Both the position numbers and the translations under genes were made by a program. From the NCBI RefSeq assembly GCF_046105845.1, contig NZ_CP151004.1: 64,000 nucleotides of DNA; one strand, 5' to 3'. This DNA is from Escherichia coli (GTDB lineage: Bacteria > Pseudomonadota > Gammaproteobacteria > Enterobacterales > Enterobacteriaceae). This document shows positions 2,484-21,300 of this stretch, one piece after another. Position 1 is the first letter of the stretch; every line of letters starts with the position of its first letter. The notes under the pieces were generated by a model. It searched no databases and had not been told where the DNA came from. It saw only the letters and a program-made list of their open reading frames with translations.

Positions 2484-3057
2484 CATCCGGTGCGGTGCTG
2501 GTATCTGTTGCCGTCACCGCGTCAATGTAATCCAGCGCAGCGTTAAGTCGGGCGGTTTCTGCCTGCGTCAGATTCCGTCCGGCCTGTAATTTCAGTTGAA
2601 TCAGACTGATAGAAGCCATTGCTGTATCAATCAGCGACTGGCGCTGTGCTTCTGCTGCATCTACTACGGCGCTATGCTGTGCCTCGGTATCCGTCACCCA
2701 TTTCTCACCATCCCATTTATCGTATGGCGTTAACGGGGCGATAGTGGTTGTATTATCAGGGTAATCACCCGGTGCTGTGATTTCTTTTGATTCTCCTGTT
2801 TCGGTGCTAAAGACAATTTCACCGCGATGGTCTGGTACATATTCCCATGAGTTAAAATCTGCAGAGCGGCAGATTGCATAACCAGCTTTGTAGGTGCCTG
2901 GAGCATCTAAACAGGAATATGCCGGAATGCCGACACCAACAGCAAGATATTCAGTTGAAGCTGAAATATACTCCCGACTCATGACGTCAAAGTTATAAAC
3001 AGTAATTTCTCCTGCCATAGTGGCAATTAATTCACTGTTTAATTCTGCGTTATTCAT
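2455..3057 (-). CDS. G: Tail-fibre assembly protein (P2 gpG/Tfa-like)
   Basis: 200-aa ORF immediately downstream of H; Tfa-type C-terminal motif. Confidence 0.8.
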   Translation of the reverse strand: MNNAELNSELIATMAGEITVYNFDVMSREYISASTEYLAVGVGIPAYSCLDAPGTYKAGYAICRSADFNSWEYVPDHRGEIVFSTETGESKEITAPGDYPDNTTTIAPLTPYDKWDGEKWVTDTEAQHSAVVDAAEAQRQSLIDTAMASISLIQLKLQAGRNLTQAETARLNAALDYIDAVTATDTSTAPDVIWPELPEA

Positions 3058-4598
3058 TATGCAGCCCTCACAATATAGTTAAAAGCGACATTTCGTGGGC
3101 GTGTTTCATTCGCACCTGCAGGTTTAGTCGTTGCCGCAACAACACCACCCTCTGTAATAGCCGGGTTAGGAATTGGGTAATTATCGAAGTCAATGGCCGG
3201 AGACAGGGGCGTGATTTGTTTTAAAATCGTGGTGCCTGTAAAACTTTCCAGAGTCTGGTCGTTAGTTCGTGAAGTCCAGATTCCCCAATAGTGGTTATGA
3301 CTGACAATCGCACCGTCCTGAAGCGTTAATAATCCCCTTCCGTTATCCACTCCACGTCCGTCATCCCAGCCACGAATAAACTCACCGCGTAAATCAGGCA
3401 ATTTATTTGTCGGGTAAGCCTTTGCCAGTTCCGGGTATTCTTCAGCAGAAAAAGCCGCACCATTGCATTTCAGCCAGCCTGTCGGCGGAGTGGCGGAAGG
3501 CCACGGAACAGGCACACCAACAGGTAATGCAGAGCCTTCTCCCAAACCAAGGTATGCGAGAAGACCAGCTACATCCTTTCCACTCAAATTGGTAAGCGTA
3601 TTGTCCAGCGGTTGTTTACCTGCCAGCGCATTAAGCATTGTCGTGGCAAAGTTCGGATCATTCCCCAGTGCCGCCGCCAGTTCGTTCAGTGTATCCAATG
3701 CCGCGGGTGCAGAACCCACCATTGCTGCAATCGCTGATTTTACAAAAGCTGTAGTGGCAATCTGTGTATTGTTGACCGACTGTGCCGCAGTAGGTGCTGT
3801 TGGCGTTCCGGTGAGTGCCGGACTCGACAGTGGCGCTTTCAGTGCCAGCGCATTGTTAATGGTGGTACTGAATTTCGGATCATTGTTAATGGCTACGGCT
3901 ATTTCTTTCAGCGTGTCCAGCGTGGCTGGCGCACCATTAATAAGAGCCGTCAGTGCCGCCTGAACAAATGCGGTGGTCGCAAGCTGCGTGGTATTATTCC
4001 CCGCCGCTGGCGTTGGCGCTTTGGGGGTTCCGGTAAACGTTGGACTTTCTTTGGGTGCATACTGTGAATGCGGGTCCGGCGCGGCAAGATGTTTTGCCAT
4101 CAGGTCATCCACGTACACCTTCAGCTCCAGTGCCTTGTCATCCACATACTTGCGGGTTGCCAGCACTACTGCAGGGTCGATTTTCAGGGTGATATTGTCC
4201 GTGCTGCTGGTAATCAGCACCATGCGCACGGTCTGGGTGCGCCCGCTGCCTTCAGCCAGTTGCGGCTTATAGCTTTCCGGGCAGTTGCCCACGGCAATCA
4301 ATGCACCTGATTCATCAAACAGGCCCACTTCACGTATCCACCAACCGCCCTCGTTTTCAGGGATCACCTGTTCAGCAATAATCTGGCTGCTGTTCTGCGG
4401 GTCGATATAGAGCATATTCAGCGCAGCCCGGCGTTTCTCATTTACCAGTGCCGTCTGCTTTGCGTCCGGCGTTGGCAATGTTCCGCCGCCATCGCCGACC
4501 GCCATATGGGTAATTTTTAAAGGCACACCGAGCGCGGCGGCGCTGGCAAGTTTCGCCGCGCCAATATCCGTCAGCAGGGTATAAAATTTTGTGCTCAT
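3057..4598 (-). CDS. H: Tail fibre protein (P2 gpH-like) with a Mu S / T4 gp37-like C-terminus
   Basis: 513-aa ORF; N-terminus MSTKFYTLLTDIGAAKLA... typical of P2 H; internal repeats (TTQLATTAFVQAAL / NTQIATTAFVKSAI); C-terminus ...RPRNVAFNYIVRAA. Confidence 0.9.
   Translation of the reverse strand: MSTKFYTLLTDIGAAKLASAAALGVPLKITHMAVGDGGGTLPTPDAKQTALVNEKRRAALNMLYIDPQNSSQIIAEQVIPENEGGWWIREVGLFDESGALIAVGNCPESYKPQLAEGSGRTQTVRMVLITSSTDNITLKIDPAVVLATRKYVDDKALELKVYVDDLMAKHLAAPDPHSQYAPKESPTFTGTPKAPTPAAGNNTTQLATTAFVQAALTALINGAPATLDTLKEIAVAINNDPKFSTTINNALALKAPLSSPALTGTPTAPTAAQSVNNTQIATTAFVKSAIAAMVGSAPAALDTLNELAAALGNDPNFATTMLNALAGKQPLDNTLTNLSGKDVAGLLAYLGLGEGSALPVGVPVPWPSATPPTGWLKCNGAAFSAEEYPELAKAYPTNKLPDLRGEFIRGWDDGRGVDNGRGLLTLQDGAIVSHNHYWGIWTSRTNDQTLESFTGTTILKQITPLSPAIDFDNYPIPNPAITEGGVVAATTKPAGANETRPRNVAFNYIVRAA
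3537..3562. repeat. gix/hix-like inversion crossover site (right), inside gene H
   Basis: TTCTCCCAAACC-AA-GGTATGCGAGAA; inverted relative to the 1687-1712 site. Confidence 0.65.
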
Positions 4599-5200
4599 GG
4601 ATTCACTCTCATTGTGTCAATAACATGGACCGCCCCGCCTTCATGCGCGGTGCCACCGGAAATAATCGTTTCGTTGATATACGGATAGATCGTGATTTCT
4701 TCGCCAAGATAGCTGGCGGCTCCCACCCAATGCGGGCCGCTGGTCTGCAGATTGATGGACATGCCGATCATGTGACGGCTACATGGTTTGGCATCGCTTA
4801 TCAGTCGCTCAAGTTCCAGATAGGTATCTTCAGTGATGCCCTGGTCCTGCACGCCGATATCCAGGCGAAACGTGCCCGGTGCCTCTCCGGTCTGCCACCA
4901 CTCAATAATGCGGATCAGAAAGCCGAACGGCTCCACCACCCGCCGCACGGCACTGGTGGTCCCTTTATGCTGATGAATATAAAAAGCATCCTTCACTACC
5001 TGGCGTTTGACGCTTTCTGTCCAGCCCTCGTCCCAGCGATCCACAGAGAACGCCCAGGCGAGATAAGGCAGGAAACTGACCGGACAGGTTGCCGGATTCC
5101 ACAAGTCACGCAGCGGCACCTGCAGATCAGAAATCCCGCTGCAGGTTTGCGCCAGTCGGCGCTCCAGTGGCGTTGAACCCGGTGGCAGCAGACTATTCAT
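4595..5200 (-). CDS. I: Baseplate protein (P2 gpI-like)
   Basis: 201-aa ORF in conserved J-I-H order; ...WNPATCPVSFLPYLAWAFSVDRWDE... motif. Confidence 0.8.
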   Translation of the reverse strand: MNSLLPPGSTPLERRLAQTCSGISDLQVPLRDLWNPATCPVSFLPYLAWAFSVDRWDEGWTESVKRQVVKDAFYIHQHKGTTSAVRRVVEPFGFLIRIIEWWQTGEAPGTFRLDIGVQDQGITEDTYLELERLISDAKPCSRHMIGMSINLQTSGPHWVGAASYLGEEITIYPYINETIISGGTAHEGGAVHVIDTMRVNP

Positions 5201-6101
5201 CCGTTCCTCCGTTGGTTACGCTCCACTGCGTACATGATGCCGCCTGTGTTTTGTTCAGGACCACATCCGCCAGAGGAGAAGCCAGCTCCACACGCTGCAC
5301 ACCCTCAACATGCAGGGCGGCAAAGATGGCGCTACGGCGAATATCCCGACCAAGACGCGTCTGACTGGCGATGTACTTCTGCAGGCTGGCTTTTGCCGCT
5401 GCCATTACCGGCTCTGCTTCCGGTCCCGGATAGAGAAAAATGGTGGCTTCCACGCGATACGGGATGATTTCTGCGCTGCGAACCGTCAGACGGTCAGCCA
5501 CCGGGCGGAAGTTCTCACTGTTCAGAGCTTTTTCCACCACGTCCAGCAGGTCTTTTTCTGCAGTTCCATCGCCTTCGCGGCTAAGGACAGTCAGCACCAC
5601 CTCTGCAGGTGCCGGGCTGGTTGCACTGGCATCCGCCACCCGACCGTCGGCGCTTCGGGCATGAAATTCATAAGCTGCAGTTGGCCCCGCAACAGAAAGC
5701 CCTTCAAAGGCTGCAGGCACACGCAGGCGTAACGCTTCATCGCTTTCCATCACAGCCGCAATGGGTGGCACAGCGTCATTATCAGCAGGCGTCACCGTCA
5801 GGCGTTTCACGTTGTAGTTGGCAGCGAGCTGGTCAAGATCGCCGCCCATCGCGTAAGCCACCATCACAGCCTGCGCGGCTTCGTTAATGCGCTGGCGCAG
5901 AAGCAACTCACGGTAAGCGTTCTCCTGCAGCAATTTGGTGACGGGTTCAGATTCCAGTTCCAGCGTGCGGATCACTGCTTCCTGCTCATCTTTCGGATGA
6001 AGCGCAACAAATTCGGCCTTGCGTTCGGCAAGCAGCGTCTCAAAGTCCGGCACATCCACAATCTGCGGCGCAGGCAACTGCGAAAGGTCAATCACTGCCA
6101 T
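5193..6101 (-). CDS. J: Baseplate protein (P2 gpJ-like)
   Basis: Start placed at internal Met (MAVIDLSQLPAP...) by comparison with P2 J; ORF track gives 5193..6140. Confidence 0.85.
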   Translation of the reverse strand: MAVIDLSQLPAPQIVDVPDFETLLAERKAEFVALHPKDEQEAVIRTLELESEPVTKLLQENAYRELLLRQRINEAAQAVMVAYAMGGDLDQLAANYNVKRLTVTPADNDAVPPIAAVMESDEALRLRVPAAFEGLSVAGPTAAYEFHARSADGRVADASATSPAPAEVVLTVLSREGDGTAEKDLLDVVEKALNSENFRPVADRLTVRSAEIIPYRVEATIFLYPGPEAEPVMAAAKASLQKYIASQTRLGRDIRRSAIFAALHVEGVQRVELASPLADVVLNKTQAASCTQWSVTNGGTDE

Positions 6102-6447
6102 TCTCTGCTCCTGTTGATACGGAAAGGGAAACAGGCACACCGTTATTACGCCGCCCGGTCAGCTCCACCACCATTGAACCGTCAAAATTGCTGTTAATGG
6201 TGATGGAATCCAGCGTCAGCCGTGGCTCCCAGCGACTCAGCGCCACATACACTGCCGACATGACCTGCAGGCGTAATGCCGGATTTTGTGGCTGGTCTAT
6301 CAGTGCCGACAGCAGGGAACCATATTCCCGACGGGCAATGCGGCTACCCTGCGGCGTCAGCAAAATGTCCCGCACCGACTGGCGCAGATGGTCAATATCA
6401 GTAATGGCTTTACCGCTGGTATTGTTCATCCCGCTATAAAGCGTCAT
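6088..6447 (-). CDS. W: Baseplate wedge protein (P2 gpW / gp25-like)
   Basis: 119-aa ORF MTLYSGMNNTSGKAITDIDHLRQSVRDILLTPQGSRIARREYGS... Confidence 0.85.
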   Translation of the reverse strand: MTLYSGMNNTSGKAITDIDHLRQSVRDILLTPQGSRIARREYGSLLSALIDQPQNPALRLQVMSAVYVALSRWEPRLTLDSITINSNFDGSMVVELTGRRNNGVPVSLSVSTGAENGSD

Positions 6448-7022
6448 ACCGGGCCTCCGGTTGTATCGCCGCCTTTCAGGACGCCAGTATGCTGATGCGC
6501 ATCAACCACGATCCCGTTAGAACTCATCGCTCCGCCGCCCTGAGTAACGCCACCATTGACCACCACTTCGCTGTTAATACGCGTGCACTCAGCCTCCAGC
6601 ACAAACTCACTGGTTTTCAGGGTGATGTTATCGGCAGCCTCAATGACCATGGATTTGATGCCCCTGACATACCAGCGCCCGGTGGCAGGTTCGTATTCAA
6701 ACCAGCCACCGTCAGGATGTTCTGTCACGCAGGCGTCCGCCGACGTCGACGGTGGTGCGAACTGATTCGAATAGATGGCGGGCAGCGCAAAAGCTGTTTC
6801 CAGATTACCGCCCATACTCAGCAGCACCACCTGCTCACCTTCCGATGGTCGCCACCATGTCCGGGCATTCCCGGCACGCAGCGTCAGCCAGCTGATCCAG
6901 TTGGTTTCAAGGTCGCCCGTTTTCACCCGGCAAAGCCAGTTTGTCCTGTCCACTTCGGTGACTACCCCAGTGCGGATCAGGTTGGTGATAAGGCGCATGA
7001 TTTCGGTTAATTGTGCGTTCAT
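6444..7022 (-). CDS. V: Baseplate spike / assembly protein (P2 gpV-like)
   Basis: 192-aa ORF, synteny V-W-J-I. Confidence 0.8.
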   Translation of the reverse strand: MNAQLTEIMRLITNLIRTGVVTEVDRTNWLCRVKTGDLETNWISWLTLRAGNARTWWRPSEGEQVVLLSMGGNLETAFALPAIYSNQFAPPSTSADACVTEHPDGGWFEYEPATGRWYVRGIKSMVIEAADNITLKTSEFVLEAECTRINSEVVVNGGVTQGGGAMSSNGIVVDAHQHTGVLKGGDTTGGPV

Positions 7023-7090
7023 AGTGAAAGGTTGCCATCAGGGGAAGAAAGGCGGCAGTGCTGCAACTTGTATCAGTGCTGATACAAAAA

Positions 7091-7537
7091 TCACCCCGCC
7101 AGCCATTGCAGAATCATGTCGCGGGTCATTGCCTCAACATCATCATTTACACCCAGAAGGCGACGCTCTGCGTAACGGACCTCCGGTCCTTTGCGGCTGA
7201 CGCGATCACGTAAGCCGTAGTGATGAACACGGGCAATGCGCTGTACCTTGCCTTCAAACTGCACGCTGGCAGAGTCGGCGCTGGCGGAAGTTTTCAGGTA
7301 TTTTGTGGTGCGCAGCTTTGCAAACATCTGACGTTTGATACGGCCTTTTTTACTGCGTGCTGTTACCCGTCGCGGTTCATAACTGCTGCCATCTGGATTG
7401 CGCTGCATTCTGATATTTTGCTGCTGTGTCCGGCGTAGTTCCTGCGCCAGCTGGCGCATCATGCGGCTTCTTGCGGCTGGCTCCAGATTCGCCAGCAAGG
7501 CACTCAGCCAGTCGTCCACTTTCTGCAGTTCAGCCAC
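7091..7537 (-). CDS. S: Tail completion protein (P2 gpS-like)
   Basis: 148-aa ORF, synteny R-S-V. Confidence 0.8.
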   Translation of the reverse strand: MAELQKVDDWLSALLANLEPAARSRMMRQLAQELRRTQQQNIRMQRNPDGSSYEPRRVTARSKKGRIKRQMFAKLRTTKYLKTSASADSASVQFEGKVQRIARVHHYGLRDRVSRKGPEVRYAERRLLGVNDDVEAMTRDMILQWLAG

Positions 7538-14804: not shown

Positions 14805-15832
14805 TGGGAAAGAGTAAGAAGAACCGCGCTGCGGCGACGAAACAGATCCAGCATAAAAACCAGACTTCAGCCGAAGCATTCAGCTTCGGTGATCCCGTTC
14901 CTGTTCTGGACCGCCGCGAACTGCTGGACTATGTGGAATGCGTACAGATGGACCGTTGGTATGAGCCACCAGTGAGTTTCGACGGCCTGGCGCGAACCTT
15001 CCGCGCCGCCGTACACCACAGCTCACCGATTGCAGTAAAGTGCAACATTCTGACCAGCACCTATATCCCTCACCCGTTGCTCAGCCAGCAGGCTTTTTCA
15101 CGTTTTGTGCAGGACTATCTGGTATTTGGTAATGCCTACCTGGAGAAACGCACGAACCGCTTCGGTGAAGTTATCGCCCTTGAACCTGCCCTGGCAAAAT
15201 ACACTCGACGCGGATTAGACCTGGATACCTACTGGTTTGTGCAATACGGTATGGCAACCCAGCCGTATCAGTTCACGAAAGGCAGCATCTTTCATCTGAT
15301 GGAACCGGATATTAATCAGGAGATCTACGGCCTGCCTGGCTATCTTTCTGCTATTCCATCCGCTCTGCTCAACGAGTCCGCCACGCTGTTCCGCCGGAAG
15401 TATTACATTAACGGCAGTCATGCAGGCTTCATCATGTACATGACCGATGCCGCGCAAAACCAGGAAGATGTGAACAACCTCCGCAACGCGATGAAAAGCG
15501 CCAAAGGTCCGGGCAATTTCCGCAACCTGTTTATGTACTCGCCTAACGGCAAAAAAGATGGCATTCAGATTATCCCGTTATCGGAAGTCGCGGCGAAGGA
15601 TGAGTTTTTGAATATCAAGAACGTGAGCCGGGACGACATGATGGCAGCACACCGTGTGCCGCCACAAATGATGGGGATTATGCCTAATAATGTTGGGGGA
15701 TTTGGGGATGTGGAGAAGGCGAGCTTGGTCTTTGTTCGTAATGAACTGATTCCTTTACAAAAAAGACTGATGGAAGTAAATGTCTGGCTCAATGAAGAAG
15801 TGATTGTATTCAATAGATACATTTTAGAGTAA
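14804..15832 (+). CDS. Q: Portal protein (P2 gpQ-like)
   Basis: 343-aa ORF; ATG at 14804 overlaps the P stop (TGATG); ORF track start 14801 is a TTG. Confidence 0.9.
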   Translation: MGKSKKNRAAATKQIQHKNQTSAEAFSFGDPVPVLDRRELLDYVECVQMDRWYEPPVSFDGLARTFRAAVHHSSPIAVKCNILTSTYIPHPLLSQQAFSRFVQDYLVFGNAYLEKRTNRFGEVIALEPALAKYTRRGLDLDTYWFVQYGMATQPYQFTKGSIFHLMEPDINQEIYGLPGYLSAIPSALLNESATLFRRKYYINGSHAGFIMYMTDAAQNQEDVNNLRNAMKSAKGPGNFRNLFMYSPNGKKDGIQIIPLSEVAAKDEFLNIKNVSRDDMMAAHRVPPQMMGIMPNNVGGFGDVEKASLVFVRNELIPLQKRLMEVNVWLNEEVIVFNRYILE

Positions 15833-15860
15833 AAAAATGGGCACCATGAGGTGCCCAAGT
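15831..15860. terminator. Hairpin terminator between the convergent portal and NTPase genes
   Basis: GGGCACC-atga-GGTGCCC stem-loop (15839-15856) flanked by an A7 run, which reads as a U-run for the minus-strand transcript. Confidence 0.5.
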
Positions 15861-15862
15861 TG

Positions 15863-17287
15863 TTACTTACGTGTTTCAACTATATTCAGCCCCTTATAAA
15901 GGCTTTGATGGATATATACAGAACCAGTATTTGGCAACATTAAATCAGCATCTTCACATCGGAATCTAGCCGTACCGGAATTGCCCAACCGGACACCAAT
16001 CACAGAAGCATTAAATAGAGTTTTCATCAATTCACGAGAAGTATAGCGCTTACAAAGGTCAGGCGCTTTCTCTTCAATCTTACTGATGAATTCTTCTGTA
16101 GAATTATATCTATGCTGCGTCTGACGTAAAGATTCCAATAGCTCACCAAAATGAGGGTAGAGCCTTTTGTATTCTTGTTTTAAGTCCTCAACTTTCCAAG
16201 CGCTGTACCGTTCTTCAGCTATTCTAATTATATCCTTTTTTATTTCAGAAGCATTAGCATCACAGCGTTTTTGGCATTCTTGCAAAAACTGAATAACTTC
16301 TCTTGGGCGCAAAAATGTGCGCTTCACCAAATAGTTAAACGGTGAAATACTCCCTCTCATTTCACCTTCCTCAAAAATATCATCTATAGTTATATTTTCC
16401 GGCAATCTGGCGTTCACCATATCTTTCAACAACTCTGGTGTCCAGATTATTTCTTCTTCAATTGCTCGGTGTTTATCTTTATCATCAAATTCCAGCCCTT
16501 GATAAATATCAGAGCGTAAAAATGTTACAATATGAATACCTTTGGCTCTAGTATCAGAATAACTATCATTAATATCTTTTGTTGCCTTCAACAAGCCAAT
16601 CAAAAGGCTTTTGGCATCATCCGATCCATCCCAAGAATCATCTAATCGATCAGTGGCAATTAGCACCCCAATATCTGTACAAATTTCTTTAAGCTCGTCA
16701 AGGATGATTTTTATTATTTGAGGTGTCAATGGTGCTTGCGAAGCATCCTTATTAAACCCCACAGCATATCCGAAAGCCTCAAAATTGAATGAACTTAATC
16801 CCGAGAGTAACTTCCTTGCAGTTCCCAAAGTAGTTGGCGATATACCACCATAGTTATCAGAAACAAATTTTTTAATTCTAGCAAGGGCCTCCCGAGGTCT
16901 TTTCTCTGAAAATTGCCTACCTGACCTAATAATTTCTGCCGCAGCCTCAACAGCTATTGCAAATTTCCAAGCATTACAATGTGCCTGTTCGGGTAACAAC
17001 CCTTGCTCTTGATATTGTTTTAATGCTCCCCAAGCATACTGGTCTGGGGTCATGACATTTACGATAACGTCCTGCCCATATTTTGCTCTTACCAACCTTG
17101 GGAGTTGGGTAAAGATGGATGATTTCCCAGCCCCCTTTCTTCCAAGAAAATGGGCACTATAGAAACTCAGAGCTTGCTCAACTTGAGGAGTATTGATGAA
17201 ATAATCAGCCAACCTTCTATCAGCTTCAGCATCGACAGTACCAAAGTTGAGTCCCTTAACTGTAAGGCCTAACGCATCTAACCGCAC
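15863..17287 (-). CDS. P-loop NTPase, divergent KAP-like (candidate anti-phage or accessory gene)
   Basis: 474-aa ORF with GTG start and AAGGA RBS; Walker A FLGRKGAGKSSIF; Walker B-like VLIATDRLDDSW; visibly AT-rich compared with flanking late genes; lies between the cos-like site and Q. Confidence 0.75.
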   Translation of the reverse strand: MRLDALGLTVKGLNFGTVDAEADRRLADYFINTPQVEQALSFYSAHFLGRKGAGKSSIFTQLPRLVRAKYGQDVIVNVMTPDQYAWGALKQYQEQGLLPEQAHCNAWKFAIAVEAAAEIIRSGRQFSEKRPREALARIKKFVSDNYGGISPTTLGTARKLLSGLSSFNFEAFGYAVGFNKDASQAPLTPQIIKIILDELKEICTDIGVLIATDRLDDSWDGSDDAKSLLIGLLKATKDINDSYSDTRAKGIHIVTFLRSDIYQGLEFDDKDKHRAIEEEIIWTPELLKDMVNARLPENITIDDIFEEGEMRGSISPFNYLVKRTFLRPREVIQFLQECQKRCDANASEIKKDIIRIAEERYSAWKVEDLKQEYKRLYPHFGELLESLRQTQHRYNSTEEFISKIEEKAPDLCKRYTSRELMKTLFNASVIGVRLGNSGTARFRCEDADLMLPNTGSVYIHQSLYKGLNIVETRK

Positions 17288-17374
17288 GATAATTCCTTAA
17301 TTGGTAAACTAAATTTGAACTTGATGCCAACAAAGATAATATCAATTTAATTAAAAAGAAAGCTGTTGCGCGCG

Positions 17375-17393
17375 CTCGTATCCCCGCCACGCC
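17375..17393 (-). other. cos-like cohesive-end site (P2/186 type)
   Basis: Minus-strand reading GGCGTGGCGGGGATACGAG; first 13 nt match my recollection of the 186 cos (GGCGTGGCGGGGAAAGCAT); flanked by repeated TTTCATGCA motifs. Confidence 0.5.
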
Positions 17394-17772
17394 TGCCCGC
17401 TTTATGCAGTGGTTTTCATGCACATGCATGACATGAGCAAAAGCCCGCCAGTTCTGGCGGATCTGAGCAAAGACGATCCTCAATCGATCATGCGATTTCA
17501 TGCAGCATAGTCATGCACTGTCAAAGAAGTAAAAATCCGTATCTGAATGGCCACTTGAAAAACGGATCATACGGGTTTACAAAGATGAATGTTCGCTGTG
17601 AACGGGAAGCGGAAGTTAACTTTCAGATAACATAATCCATATGCACGAGAACCTCTAAAATAGAATGGGACACCTAAGCGGGGTACTTACAACGATTCTT
17701 TCCATATTCACAGTTAACACTCTGTTTGGCGTATTTTTATTCAAATAGCAAACACCAATAAAAGGAGTTTCC

Positions 17773-18108
17773 ATGAACAATATTCCCCCTATACCACAGT
17801 TAGGAATTTATGTCTCAAAAATCGATCCCACCCTACGTATCACTGTAACCGATGTTGATATTGTTGATGGTGAGGATGATTCTCCTGATGATGAATTGTT
17901 TTATTTAGTCCACTGGATCGAGGGGGAAGATGAAAGTGATATGACAGCAATGGGATTTGAGCTAGACCCAGTAGAGTGGCAGGCTTTCGTTGAATCTGAG
18001 CAATTAGTGTTTGAGCGTGATCCGTACATGGATTCAATCCCCGAAAATTCAAACTTGGCAAAGATTCGGGATTTTCTCATGAAGACTAAACAGAATGATC
18101 ATTCGTAA
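17773..18108 (+). CDS. Small highly acidic hypothetical protein
   Basis: 111-aa ORF with strong AAGGAG RBS; Asp/Glu-rich (VDIVDGEDDSPDDELF, IEGEDESDM). Confidence 0.6.
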   Translation: MNNIPPIPQLGIYVSKIDPTLRITVTDVDIVDGEDDSPDDELFYLVHWIEGEDESDMTAMGFELDPVEWQAFVESEQLVFERDPYMDSIPENSNLAKIRDFLMKTKQNDHS

Positions 18109-18300
18109 GTGTAAGCATCCATCAGGAAAATGGTTTTGTAAGTGAATCATCAACTTTTAGAGAGTCTCAGACACTCCCACTTCTGCTTCTGACACAAAGC
18201 GGACGATCACTTATCAAAATAACCGCCCACCTTACGCCTTATTTCACTCATTGCCCAAACTAGCCCCCATCAGAATGAATCCTCCTGGGGGCAACATTTC

Positions 18301-18534
18301 TTAATGCAGCCAGCTGTCGTCCTCCCACACCTTCTGCATAATTTTCATCACTTGTTTTCTTTCTTCATCCAGTTGCAGTCCGGTTAGTTCCACACCGTTA
18401 GAGCTACCTTTGCGAATGCGAATTACCGTTTTGGGATACAGGGGGCGCAGATTGCGGTAAAGCTCGGATTCAAGGGCGTCCAGGGTAGACTGGCTAATCT
18501 TCTGCTCTTTATCGATCATTATTTCAATGCGCAT
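18301..18534 (-). CDS. DinI-family protein (186 Tum-like SOS antirepressor, C-terminal module)
   Basis: MRIEIMIDKEQKISQSTLDALESELYRNLRPLYP...KIMQKVWEDDSWLH aligns with the DinI fold; ORF track extends it to 18606 in the same frame. Confidence 0.7.
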   Translation of the reverse strand: MRIEIMIDKEQKISQSTLDALESELYRNLRPLYPKTVIRIRKGSSNGVELTGLQLDEERKQVMKIMQKVWEDDSWLH

Positions 18535-18544
18535 AAAAGTCACC

Positions 18545-18733
18545 TCAGCTGATGACATCCATTGAGCGGTTGTATTCGTGGCTTCTGATTTTTGCCATGA
18601 GTTCATCAGTCAATTCAGAAACCCACTGCAGAGCCAGCCCCTTCTCTTCATCACTACACTCACTAGCCGCTACAAGCTTAAGAAAAAAATCAATGCGCTG
18701 GAGCTTCAAAGACTCCAAAAAATAGTCCTGCAT
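18545..18733 (-). CDS. Small hypothetical protein, first gene of the LexA-boxed operon
   Basis: 62-aa ORF directly downstream of the LexA box, upstream of the DinI-like ORF, in a different frame. Confidence 0.5.
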   Translation of the reverse strand: MQDYFLESLKLQRIDFFLKLVAASECSDEEKGLALQWVSELTDELMAKIRSHEYNRSMDVIS

Positions 18734-18764
18734 CTTTCCTCCTATAACACCAAAACAATACTGT

Positions 18765-18780
18765 ACACATAACCACTGTT
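18765..18780. promoter_or_regulatory. LexA (SOS) box
   Basis: CTGTTTATATTTACAG, a perfect CTGT-N8-ACAG box about 30 bp upstream of the 18733 start. Confidence 0.6.
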
Positions 18781-18885
18781 TATATTTACAGTATATAATA
18801 ATCTTACTGATGTAAAACGTTTTTTTACGTTCATCGGCCTGATATGCCTGGTATTATTAAGAGCACGAATTGTTAACCCGCGTAA

Positions 18886-21300
18886 TTAATATAGGTTCCG
18901 CCACTTATCATCTTCCTTCAGACGCTGGTTCCGATAGAAGATACGCAGGCCTGCTCCTGACGGAATACTGCCGCCGCGAAGGAGCAAATCGACTTCTTTC
19001 TCGCTGCCATCAAATCCCCTGGACTTCAGTTCATAGACGAGCTGCTGTCGCTGATGGTCTGTAATTCGCTGTTTGTAGTCTTTACGCCGTTTCGGTTTCA
19101 CCTGGCGTAACCTTGCAGCCAGTTCCCGGCGCTCTTTTTTGCTCATACTGTGCAGGTAATCGTGCAACTCCTTGTCATTCATACGGGTAATATCCGTTCT
19201 GGAGTCCGCATCAGCTGATTTGTCTTTCCCTTGTTGGTTCAAATTTTCAGCAAGGGGACAGTTATTGCCACGAGTCCAAGGGGCGCAAGCGCCCTGGTCG
19301 GCTGCCGCCTCCTGAACGTCAACGACCTTACGAACCATTTTCCATTTCATTGCATGAGTGCAGATCTTGCCCTGTACAATGGGTGACCAGATGCCATAAA
19401 TACGAATACCGTGATCGCCATAAGCGGTCGGCTCTTCGTTAATTTCATAAGCTGTTCTGATAAGGTGATATTTGCGGGGAACCAGTACGCCGCCCTGCTT
19501 CATGATGTAGGTGGCAAAACAGCCAGCATCAGCGGCAGCCAGGATGGCATCAAGGCGCGGGTCATCCAGTACCGGCGCACCTGCTTTTTTGTCACCCTGT
19601 TGCCTTGCCGCCTGACCAGCCAGCAAGCGAAGTTCACGGTACGCCTGACGCCCCGGAATACCAAAGAAGCGGAACTGCTGAACACGATGCAGAGACGCCC
19701 AGGCATTAACGTATTCGGCGTTATCACGCAGGGATTTACCCGTTTCCTTGCTGATCTCGCCAGCCAGACCACGTCCGTCAATGTTCTTACTGATGTATTT
19801 CGCGATGTAGCTTGTCGGCGTTCCTTTGCGCGGGTTTATCAGCTCAGACTTAAAGCGTGGACCCGTGTTATTGCCCAGTTCCTCGCGGTCTTCACGGATG
19901 GCAAACTTACGCAACAATGCAGTAATGGCGCGGCGGTCTTTTTTGCGCATGAAACACATGAGATGCCAGTGCACAGTACCGTCATGGTGCGGCTCAGCCA
20001 CCCGCACGCCATACCAGCGCAACCCGGCTTTGTGCATAGCCTTACGAAATGCAGCAAACATGCCGACCAGATAATCGCTGCTTTGTCTTACCGTCGCATT
20101 TGTCCAGGTTGGGTTTGGTCTGCCGTTATTGAGCGTAGAATGGAAACGTGACGGACAGGTAATGGTGTAGAAAACGGCGCAGTCACCACGCATTTCCGCG
20201 ATAAGCTCCAGACCTTTAACACAGGCCATCATCTCATTGCGGCGGTGCGCCGGGTTGCTGCTGCTGGCGTTTACCACGTCTTCCATATCCAGCGTGTCGC
20301 CGTCTTCGTTCACCAGTTCATGAGAACGGAAAAACTCCAGCGACTTGCGGCGCTGCTCACGTTTATGCGTCACTGCTTCATAGCTGACATAGGGAGATGC
20401 TTTTTTGCTGACCAGGCAGACAGCACGCAACTGCTCTTCCCGCCATTCGCAACGTATCTTCCACAATTTTCGATACCACCAGTCGGCGCAAAGCATACGT
20501 GCCAGCGAACCCGGTATGAGTTCATAGGGCACGGGTTTGCGGCGGTTTCTTTTCCGACGGAGTTTCTCAAACGCAGGCGGGATAACATCCAGACGCAGGG
20601 TTTCCGCTGCCACCTTTTCCCATGTCTTGCGGATTTCTTCTGGCTTAACGTCATCGGTGGCATACAAATCACCACAAGCGGCCTCAAGACACATGCTCAT
20701 ATGCGCTGCTACCAAGGTGGACAGGCGTTTTACCTGATCCTGACTCATTTCAGGCAGGATCAGCAGGCCCTCAAGCCCTTGATGGCTTGCCATAAAACGG
20801 AAAGAAGCGGATAGCTGACTGTCGCGTACATACTCCAGTCGCTCCAGACATGACTTAATCGTCTCACGCAAATAGCGGGAATAAGCCTTTGGCCTGCCCA
20901 GGCTGCTGAAGTATTCGATACGTTGCATCAGCGGCTTGCTGATGTGGGTGGGCTGGGCGCTGACGTCCGCCAGAATGACCATGTCCGGGTTAAAACGCTG
21001 CTGCTCATGCGCCAGCTTTGCCCGACTAATGAGATTATCCTGCTCCATTTCGCGCTGGACAGGATCACGGGATTCATTAAAGAAATAACGCTCCCAGACC
21101 TGCTCACTCAGTGCATCGCGGCGCAGCTGTTCCTGCTCGTTATCGGCAGCGTACAGAGTGATCATGTTTGAAAGTGCAGACTCCGGCGCAACTTCCGCCG
21201 GGTCCAGATAAGGGTTAATGGCCTTTTTCGGGCCGTTCCATGAAAATGCTGCAGCGGCCTCGTTAAAGCCGCTAGAGTTGCTCATATCATCATGACTCAT
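18886..21300 (-). CDS. A: Replication initiation endonuclease (P2 gpA-like, rolling circle)
   Basis: 804-aa ORF, characteristic size and position. Confidence 0.85.

Follow-up and report, generated by a model that had tools for sequence, protein, structure and literature searches.

The T7 DNA mimic Ocr (gp0.3) is all-helical, and ArdA is an elongated, three-domain protein; colicin DNase immunity proteins and barstar are acidic, 70–110 residues long, cover a basic nucleic-acid-binding site, and are often orphans on mobile elements; CarS of Myxococcus is an SH3-like acidic protein that mimics operator DNA and sequesters a repressor. The genes old and tin of phage P2 read inward from the cohesive-end site, cos. 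We examined how these compare with an acidic open reading frame (ORF) of 111 amino acids (aa) at 17773–18108 (+ strand) of a 64,000-nucleotide (nt) stretch of Escherichia coli DNA (contig NZ_CP151004.1; the whole stretch is called the window), which represents a prophage of the P2/186/Fels-2 group (Peduoviridae). The initial annotation had read the ORF as a strongly expressed, very acidic protein that might be an anti-restriction factor, or else a partner or regulator of the NTPase encoded nearby. The ORF is an autonomous accessory ("moron") gene of mobile elements, carried as optional cargo; it is independent of the neighboring ATPase and is not in a system with its neighbors.

Sequence comparisons indicate that the ORF is a real, conserved gene under purifying selection. 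Sixty-one homologous clusters were found at 50–98% identity, nearly all of 108–111 aa and all from Enterobacterales; a profile search of 1.8 billion representatives returned 34 clusters at 50% identity, including relatives of 68–127 aa that cover residues 1–80. Copies carried on the mobile cassette described below have dN/dS ratios (nonsynonymous over synonymous substitution rates) of 0.07–0.23, as expected for purifying selection, and copies at six loci are 96% identical in the first two codon positions versus 86% in the third. The protein is WP_001059831.1, named "Ybl33" in UniRef and "DUF8087 domain-containing protein" in recent RefSeq annotation by the Prokaryotic Genome Annotation Pipeline (PGAP); the PF26332 (DUF8087) assignment is precomputed on all 61 homologous clusters, including the one holding the exact sequence, and in PHROGs the protein matches phrog_17127 (E 2e-70), a family without an assigned function. 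No family was matched at E≤1 in a Pfam release without the DUF8087 model or among the 5027 models of PADLOC-DB, NCBIfam gave no match, and the protein's profile gave 0 matches at E≤10 against all PDB sequences. DUF8087 is already catalogued as a sequence family without an assigned function, and the protein is new to the literature. Homology to a structural or housekeeping phage protein, the outcome that the initial annotation had set against its own proposal, was looked for and none was found.

The ORF listing shows the coding sequence intact and with an ATG start, exactly as first described, and the near-consensus ribosome-binding site was likewise read directly from the DNA (AAGGAG at 17762–17767, + strand, 5-nt spacer to the ATG); cassette copies in other genera have weaker sites (AAGGA, AGGA, AAGGC). 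A scan of 17200–18900, cassette included, for the sigma-70 consensus came up empty, so that the ribosome-binding site is the sole ground for the label "strongly expressed". The best candidates picked by eye, TTCACA-N19-TATTTT and a lone CATAAT at ~17644, were both unconvincing. The two Asp/Glu runs and the high acidity were found as reported (26 D/E versus 7 K/R; pI 4.05; net charge −19), and acidity is family-wide, with a median net charge of −17 in close relatives and −12 in distant ones. There is no hydrophobic segment (maximum 19-residue Kyte-Doolittle mean 0.64).

The gene was present in 213 of 5,426 complete E. coli genomes, 131 of them at ≥99% identity and 80 at ~90%; the one ~90% copy that was examined (ECONIH1) is in a genomic island. 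An identical protein sequence occurs in BL21(DE3) and its derivatives, E. coli C and E. coli W. A tblastn search of 50,697 sequenced phage records found no copy; the same search of plasmids gave one match, and a pattern scan of species-representative genomes gave 4 loci. The region had been called variable, and so it is: the slot between cos and the DinI-like gene is empty in the collinear phage vB_EcoM-813R9, and in Fels-2 an unrelated 243-aa gene (STM2726) takes the same place. The flanking block is found in ~1300 E. coli genomes versus 213 for the gene. The initial description is borne out to this extent: the ORF is a real gene for a small, highly acidic accessory protein, and it lies in the variable region next to cos, here in a P2-like prophage. 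The gene is between gpA and portal, is present or absent among otherwise collinear phages, is of foreign base composition (40.5% G+C versus 53–55% in phage core genes), and has moved between unrelated elements. It shares the gpA-portal hotspot, and the variability among collinear phages, with P2 old and tin; these, in contrast, are much larger and have known exclusion phenotypes, whereas the window protein is 111 aa long and its gene is separated by cos from the main cargo slot. The cos-proximal hotspot of P2 was already known (Rousset et al. 2022, PMC9122126), and the three positions taken by DUF8087 genes in P2-like prophages coincide with the defence hotspots GpA-portal, integrase-att and integrase-primase listed in a 2026 preprint (10.64898/2026.02.27.708500). 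The acidic gene is one further cargo gene of the known hotspot; neither paper mentions it.

The gene travels in a mobile cassette of ~540 bp at 17595–18144 (+ strand; blastn boundaries 17595 or 17610 to 18144), made up of a leader, the gene and a 36-nt tail. Cassette copies at 85–88% nucleotide identity were found in Serratia, Symbiopectobacterium, Lonsdalea, Providencia and Morganella; the copies in these five genera encode proteins 85–90% identical, and none adjoins P2 genes. Some are in CP4-57-like islands, with a KlcA-type Antirestrict gene, DUF932, IrmA and a YeeP-like GTPase nearby; in the Morganella/Providencia island the cassette is 250 bp downstream of a full-length Mokosh type II MkoC gene (1497 bits; 3242–6751 of the island), and in Morganella a separate PF03230 gene is 4 kb from the cassette. 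Others are in conjugative elements that also bear DUF2857, VirB3/VirB4 and a P4-type integrase; one of these copies is followed directly by an Imm42 gene. Nucleotide homology ends exactly at 18144 in every copy, the more distant Klebsiella copy included.

The cassette ends in a gene fossil on its 3' side and probably holds a second one in its 5' part. Translation of 18095–18145 (+ strand), overlapping the 3' end of the coding sequence, gives MIIRKCKHPSGKWFCK followed by a stop; in P2-like prophages of Klebsiella aerogenes the intact N-terminus of a P2/186-type integrase, VTVRKLPSGKWLCQCF, overlaps the DUF8087 stop by 4 nt, and the PSGKW fossil is readable in all cassette copies, those in islands and conjugative elements included. 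As judged by this match, 18095–18145 is the fossil of a P2/186-type integrase 5' end. At the other end, tblastx and tblastn tentatively place the C-terminal tail anchor of an Flk_N-family protein at 17665–17748 (+ strand; MGHLSGVLTTILSIFTVNTLFGVFLFK, then a stop): LSGVLTTILSIFTVNTLFG is identical at 9 of 19 positions to the Flk_N C-termini LSGAIVGALLVVITNTL and LSGALTGAFFVLFTNTLYG, each ending in a stop, a weak similarity which is collinear with the Klebsiella prophage gene order. The ATG of this reading frame is lost in the Morganella/Providencia copies, and the stretch is probably the fossil of such a tail anchor. Together the fossils show that the cassette stems from a lysogeny operon, CI-Flk_N-[cargo]-Int, which other P2-like prophages carry; it was excised from there and has landed here between cos and the DinI/Tum genes.

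The alignments delimit a co-mobilized leader of 165 nt (17608–17772, + strand), whose Jukes-Cantor distance between the window and other copies is 0.15–0.19 versus a dS of 0.27–0.41, so that it diverges about half as fast as synonymous sites. Expression signals (promoter, 5' untranslated region) are probably now located in this leader. An Rfam search of 17200–18400 gave chance-level matches and no family. A structured RNA in the leader was considered and set aside; the RNAalifold prediction was weak (−21 kcal/mol over 207 nt), and the sequences vary too little to reveal covariation.

Intact relatives show the arrangement from which the cassette came. Two lineages have the order CI repressor, Flk_N, DUF8087, integrase: the K. 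aerogenes-type prophages and another in which the DUF8087 protein is 42% identical to the window protein; the gaps of 10–11 nt, with the 4-nt overlap at the last junction, indicate one operon. In a third lineage DUF8087 comes after CI and integrase, at the edge of the prophage, and overlaps integrase by 8 nt. Cargo between Flk_N and integrase is swapped: in this slot the common K. pneumoniae prophage has a 288-aa protein without an assigned role, and phage 520873 has other sequence. The Flk_N gene of the lysogeny operon gives these prophages a tail-anchored protein homologous to the N-domain of Flk, a flagellar regulator (NF007987, E 3e-16). Such homologs are very common, one variant being on >750 contigs.

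Distant copies were found in other settings. A Nitrosospira element with one such copy carries an integrase, an AlpA-like helix-turn-helix (HTH) gene, a GPA-type replicase and a TIR-AAA-TPR protein. On a Pantoea chromosome a DUF8087 gene stands alone and intact (7001–7309 of that locus), with its own ribosome-binding site and a terminator-like hairpin, beside pgsA-uvrC and ~330 nt from a tRNA-Leu(taa)/tRNA-Cys cluster that is the integration site of the Klebsiella prophage; no prophage and no integrase remnant was detectable at the Pantoea site. Further distant copies are on short metagenomic contigs among toxin-antitoxin pairs. Some distant relatives have a basic N-terminal extension, MGxAKxRGxxxxRIxxA, a start that is shared by an unrelated 103-aa neighboring ORF; on the contigs bearing these extended forms, small ORFs follow one another, BrnT/BrnA and HigB/HTH pairs among them, in a way that recalls the cassette arrays of integrons.

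AlphaFold2 run with the family alignment gave a model with a mean predicted local distance difference test score (pLDDT) of 78.8 and a predicted template modeling score (pTM) of 0.64, with strands at 11–15, 22–31, 43–50, 61–64 and 78–82, a helix at 66–76, and a C-terminal helix at 94–108. The protein is, by this model, a small beta-barrel (residues ~11–82) with a C-terminal helix, soluble and strongly acidic, in which the two acidic runs form loops (32–42 and 51–60). The family core is residues 1–80, with P8, G11 and W69 invariant and Y13, V25, V28, V46, E63 and L78 nearly so. The first acidic loop ranges from 0 to 12 residues across the wider family, and the alignments indicate that overall acidity is conserved and the particular run VDIVDGEDDSPDDE is not. 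Foldseek searches of PDB and BFVD gave nothing at E≤0.001; the best structural matches (Pfam DUF1653 [PDB 3be3], FeoA, EF-P domain I, and Tudor/CarD barrels) reflect a generic small SH3-like topology.

Our preferred reading, held tentatively and at a little less than an even chance, is that the gene encodes a free-standing acidic protein, made in the resident state, that binds and blocks a basic nucleic-acid-binding protein. The protein has no enzymatic or membrane features, which suggests that it would act by binding, and stoichiometrically; acidity is the most constant trait of the family, so the target is likely to present a basic, typically nucleic-acid-binding surface. The acidic loops and helix would occupy that surface, as an electrostatic decoy or an "immunity-type" inhibitor. 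Since relatives are co-transcribed with repressor and integrase, and the Pantoea copy stands alone, the protein is probably made while the element is resident; the target would then more likely be something that the resident element or its cell has to restrain, such as a toxin, a host system, or an incoming phage's nuclease or DNA- or RNA-binding protein, than restriction at entry. This favors protection or modulation during lysogeny over a role like that of Ocr when DNA enters. The protein resembles the acidic immunity-type inhibitors in being small, acidic and stand-alone, and one conjugative-element copy adjoins Imm42; it differs from them in showing no homology or fold match, and no cognate toxin gene lies upstream in the contexts examined.

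Several points weigh against this reading. Mimicry is deduced from composition alone; the ancestry in a lysogeny operon dates the expression of the relatives and not that of the window copy, for which the promoter scan was empty; the known cargo of P2 hotspots consists mostly of multi-domain defence enzymes, among which a stand-alone protective factor of 111 aa is unusual; and a literature search on DUF8087, PF26332, WP_001059831 and Ybl33 gave nothing relevant on a partner, expression or a phenotype. A broader proposal is possible and more doubtful: DUF8087 would be a family of nucleic-acid-mimicking inhibitors, not recognized before, that has a small beta-barrel fold of its own. Resident mobile elements, the P2-like prophage of BL21(DE3), E. 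coli C and E. coli W among them, would express it either as a minimal single-protein protective factor, against a nuclease or DNA-binding protein of incoming phages or toxins, or as a broad anti-defence protein.

Next in standing, and unlikely, is the first proposal of the initial annotation: an anti-restriction protein in the manner of Ocr or ArdA, or a broader anti-defence protein. As an acidic DNA mimic made early after entry, it would block type I restriction-modification, BREX or another DNA-binding defence and so shield the incoming phage, island or conjugative element. The window protein does share with Ocr and ArdA its small size, cytoplasmic nature, extreme acidity, carriage on a mobile element and position at a genome end; its size, pI and net charge are typical of known DNA mimics, the acidity is kept throughout the family, and the spread over phages, islands and conjugative elements is like that of ArdA/KlcA-type genes. 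Anti-restriction-modification and anti-CRISPR genes are known in a few P2-like prophages, and a survey recognized anti-defence genes in just 28 of 1,511 P2 elements (10.64898/2026.02.27.708500). The fold argues the other way: DUF8087 models as a small beta-barrel plus helix and so lacks the all-helical fold of Ocr, with which it has no sequence homology; Ocr, ArdA, Arn, Ugi and other solved mimics were absent from all sequence and fold match lists; and for ArdA (PF07275) and KlcA-ArdB (PF03230) there was neither a Pfam match at E≤1 nor a fold match. The first acidic run is dispensable in relatives, which are in a repressor-integrase lysogeny operon rather than an early-entry operon; the lone Pantoea copy has been kept on a chromosome without a mobile element; and the gene was absent from the sequenced phage records.

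The position at the end of the virion DNA was also found to bear on this proposal in both directions. The cos cohesive-end sequence GGCGTGGCGGGGATACGAG, located at 17375–17393 (− strand) by pattern search and sequence reading, is identical to the cos given for the Fels-2-like phage SEN8 (PMC5427200). It is upstream of the acidic ORF by 380 nt, so in linear virion DNA the ORF is the outermost gene at that end and reads inward, as would suit a gene for early entry. The conserved cos block at 17365–17519 (a span to which strand does not apply; blastn to Fels-2 and vB_EcoM-813R9 aligned 17365/6–17516/9 at 88–91% identity) extends among Fels-2-like phages ~10 nt on the portal side of the cut and ~125 nt on the other side, which suggests that the terminase-binding part of cos sits on the DinI/gpA side. 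The block is thus almost wholly on the gene's side, and by analogy with lambda cosB this end would be packaged first and ejected last, a weak point against an early-entry role.

It is improbable that the protein regulates the phage's own choice of lysis or lysogeny, or its integration, as a decoy for CI, the Tum/DinI antirepressor, an incoming satellite antirepressor or integrase. Three prophage lineages have the gene in translational coupling with int, either before or after it, and in the window it is convergent with the DinI/Tum genes. CarS is a precedent for an acidic, repressor-sequestering mimic, and its likeness to the DUF8087 model, a small beta-barrel with an acidic surface, makes it a lead, and a lead only, to SH3-like DNA mimicry. 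Against such a regulator, the cassette is found at 85–90% identity and under purifying selection in conjugative elements and CP4-57-like islands without P2 regulators; unrelated cargo takes the same position before int, and about nine-tenths of the related E. coli prophages are without the gene.

Still less probable is that the protein was once the antidote or a regulator of Flk_N, the tail-anchored membrane protein, and that it has lost this partner and is kept because it cross-protects. Flk_N is directly 5' of DUF8087 in two divergent prophage lineages, with paired locus tags, and the decayed 3' end of Flk_N seems to have been kept beside the intact small gene, as in decaying toxin-antidote pairs. 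Against this, Flk_N is far commoner than DUF8087, so the two are not an obligate pair, and it is usually followed by other cargo; DUF8087 also occurs after int without Flk_N, the Nitrosospira and Pantoea copies are without it, and the orphan copies are still under purifying selection. The adjacent toxin gene that would mark a type II antitoxin or cognate immunity protein was not found: no toxin-like ORF is alongside in the window, only the probable decayed Flk_N tail upstream.

We give equally little credit, or slightly less, to the view that the gene is a hitch-hiking remnant, functionless where it now sits. The fossils on its flanks and the lack of a recognizable promoter fit a remnant; the gene is intact in 213 E. 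coli genomes, however, copies that left the operon still show the low dN/dS ratios given above, the leader evolves about 2-fold more slowly than synonymous sites, and the near-consensus ribosome-binding site of the window copy is stronger than that of the other cassette copies. A two-gene system with the adjacent Sll1717-family ATPase has proximity only in its favor (486 nt, in divergent orientation) and is effectively refuted by independent assortment, with cos between the genes, both together in 1 of 1319 records versus the gene in 213 genomes, and the identical protein beside a retron, GmrSD or an OLD-like nuclease elsewhere.

That ATPase (15863–17287, − strand; 474 aa) is outside the cassette and occupies the cargo slot between portal and cos. 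The initial annotation had called it a KAP-like NTPase: it is an NTPase, and the family is named Sll1717 P-loop ATPase by NCBIfam (NF047389, 284 bits against a cutoff of 75). Its gene has 39.6% G+C, and the protein is weakly similar to the "anti-phage protein" model NF053860 (E 4.5e-6) and to PADLOC PDC-M28C. The further suggestion, that the acidic protein is its partner or regulator, fell on the opposite strands, the intervening cos and the other cargo found beside an identical protein. The 1319 records are those matching in a megablast search of the 5,426 complete genomes; more than 1000 E. coli genomes show a sharp breakpoint at ~17365, to the left of which the sequence differs, and the block running from cos through the acidic gene to DinI recurs with different sequence to its left.

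In the portal-cos slot beside an identical acidic protein, BLR(DE3)/BL21-type strains and E. coli C have retron St85/Ec86, E. coli W has a GmrSD endonuclease, and strain MB30 has an OLD-like nuclease together with IS5; in Fels-2 the slot holds AbiU. A Hypoth_Ymh-domain protein was also seen in this slot in related phages. At 2991–5613 of the MB30 locus the nuclease gene abuts an IS5-family element; the nuclease is shorter than P2 Old, and may have been truncated by the IS5 insertion. Such varied cargo (retron, GmrSD, OLD-like nuclease, AbiU, Hypoth_Ymh) makes the ATPase a candidate single-gene defence. Because the left-hand cargo is independent, cargo has two separate slots here, with the conserved cos block between them, and the acidic gene occupies the second, from cos to DinI. 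No Sll1717-type ATPase is alongside the cassette in the islands and conjugative elements that bear it.

The remaining features of the locus are as follows. Capsid and scaffold genes (− strand) come first, followed by terminase (+ strand) and portal (+ strand, ending at 15832), after which comes the ATPase slot. On the other side of the acidic ORF, and outside the cassette, is the convergent DinI-like (TumB-type) gene at 18301–18534 (− strand; PGAP coordinates; PF06183, E 1.2e-22), with a 62-aa ORF beside it and then the gpA replication gene and a Dam methylase, all on the − strand. The 62-aa ORF precedes the DinI-like gene (234 nt in PGAP) within 18301–18733 (− strand); related phages have the DinI-like gene annotated as TumB-like or as an SOS induction modulator, and the two ORFs together may form an SOS-controlled, split antirepressor of the 186 Tum type. 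A GC-rich hairpin, GCCCCCA-N16-TGGGGGC at 18263–18292, was read from the sequence between the acidic ORF and the DinI-like gene; it is a possible two-way terminator, which the terminator scan did not report because the loop is above the limit of the scan. An 81-aa ORF at 17256–17501 (− strand) matches phrog_28685 (E 1.7e-27). Since it runs across the point where cos is cut, linear virion DNA cannot hold it whole, and it is probably a spurious call that persists through the conservation of cos. The sole record containing the whole of 15800–18700 (99.7% identity) is NZ_JBRERE010000002.1 (plasmid pE100181_149, 150 kb), which bears a P2-like prophage and may be a mislabeled chromosomal contig.

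The finding matters first because workhorse strains, namely BL21(DE3) and its derivatives, E. coli C and E. coli W, all carry the identical protein. The fossil-flanked cassette is a small, clear example of cargo moving between P2-like prophage hotspots, islands and conjugative elements, and it records the export of cargo from a lysogeny operon. Should the protein prove inert, it would be ordinary, one more DUF in a known variable region. If it is an inhibitor, whether it serves phage or host, the few acidic mimic proteins would gain a new fold, and it could affect BL21(DE3), C and W as phage hosts.

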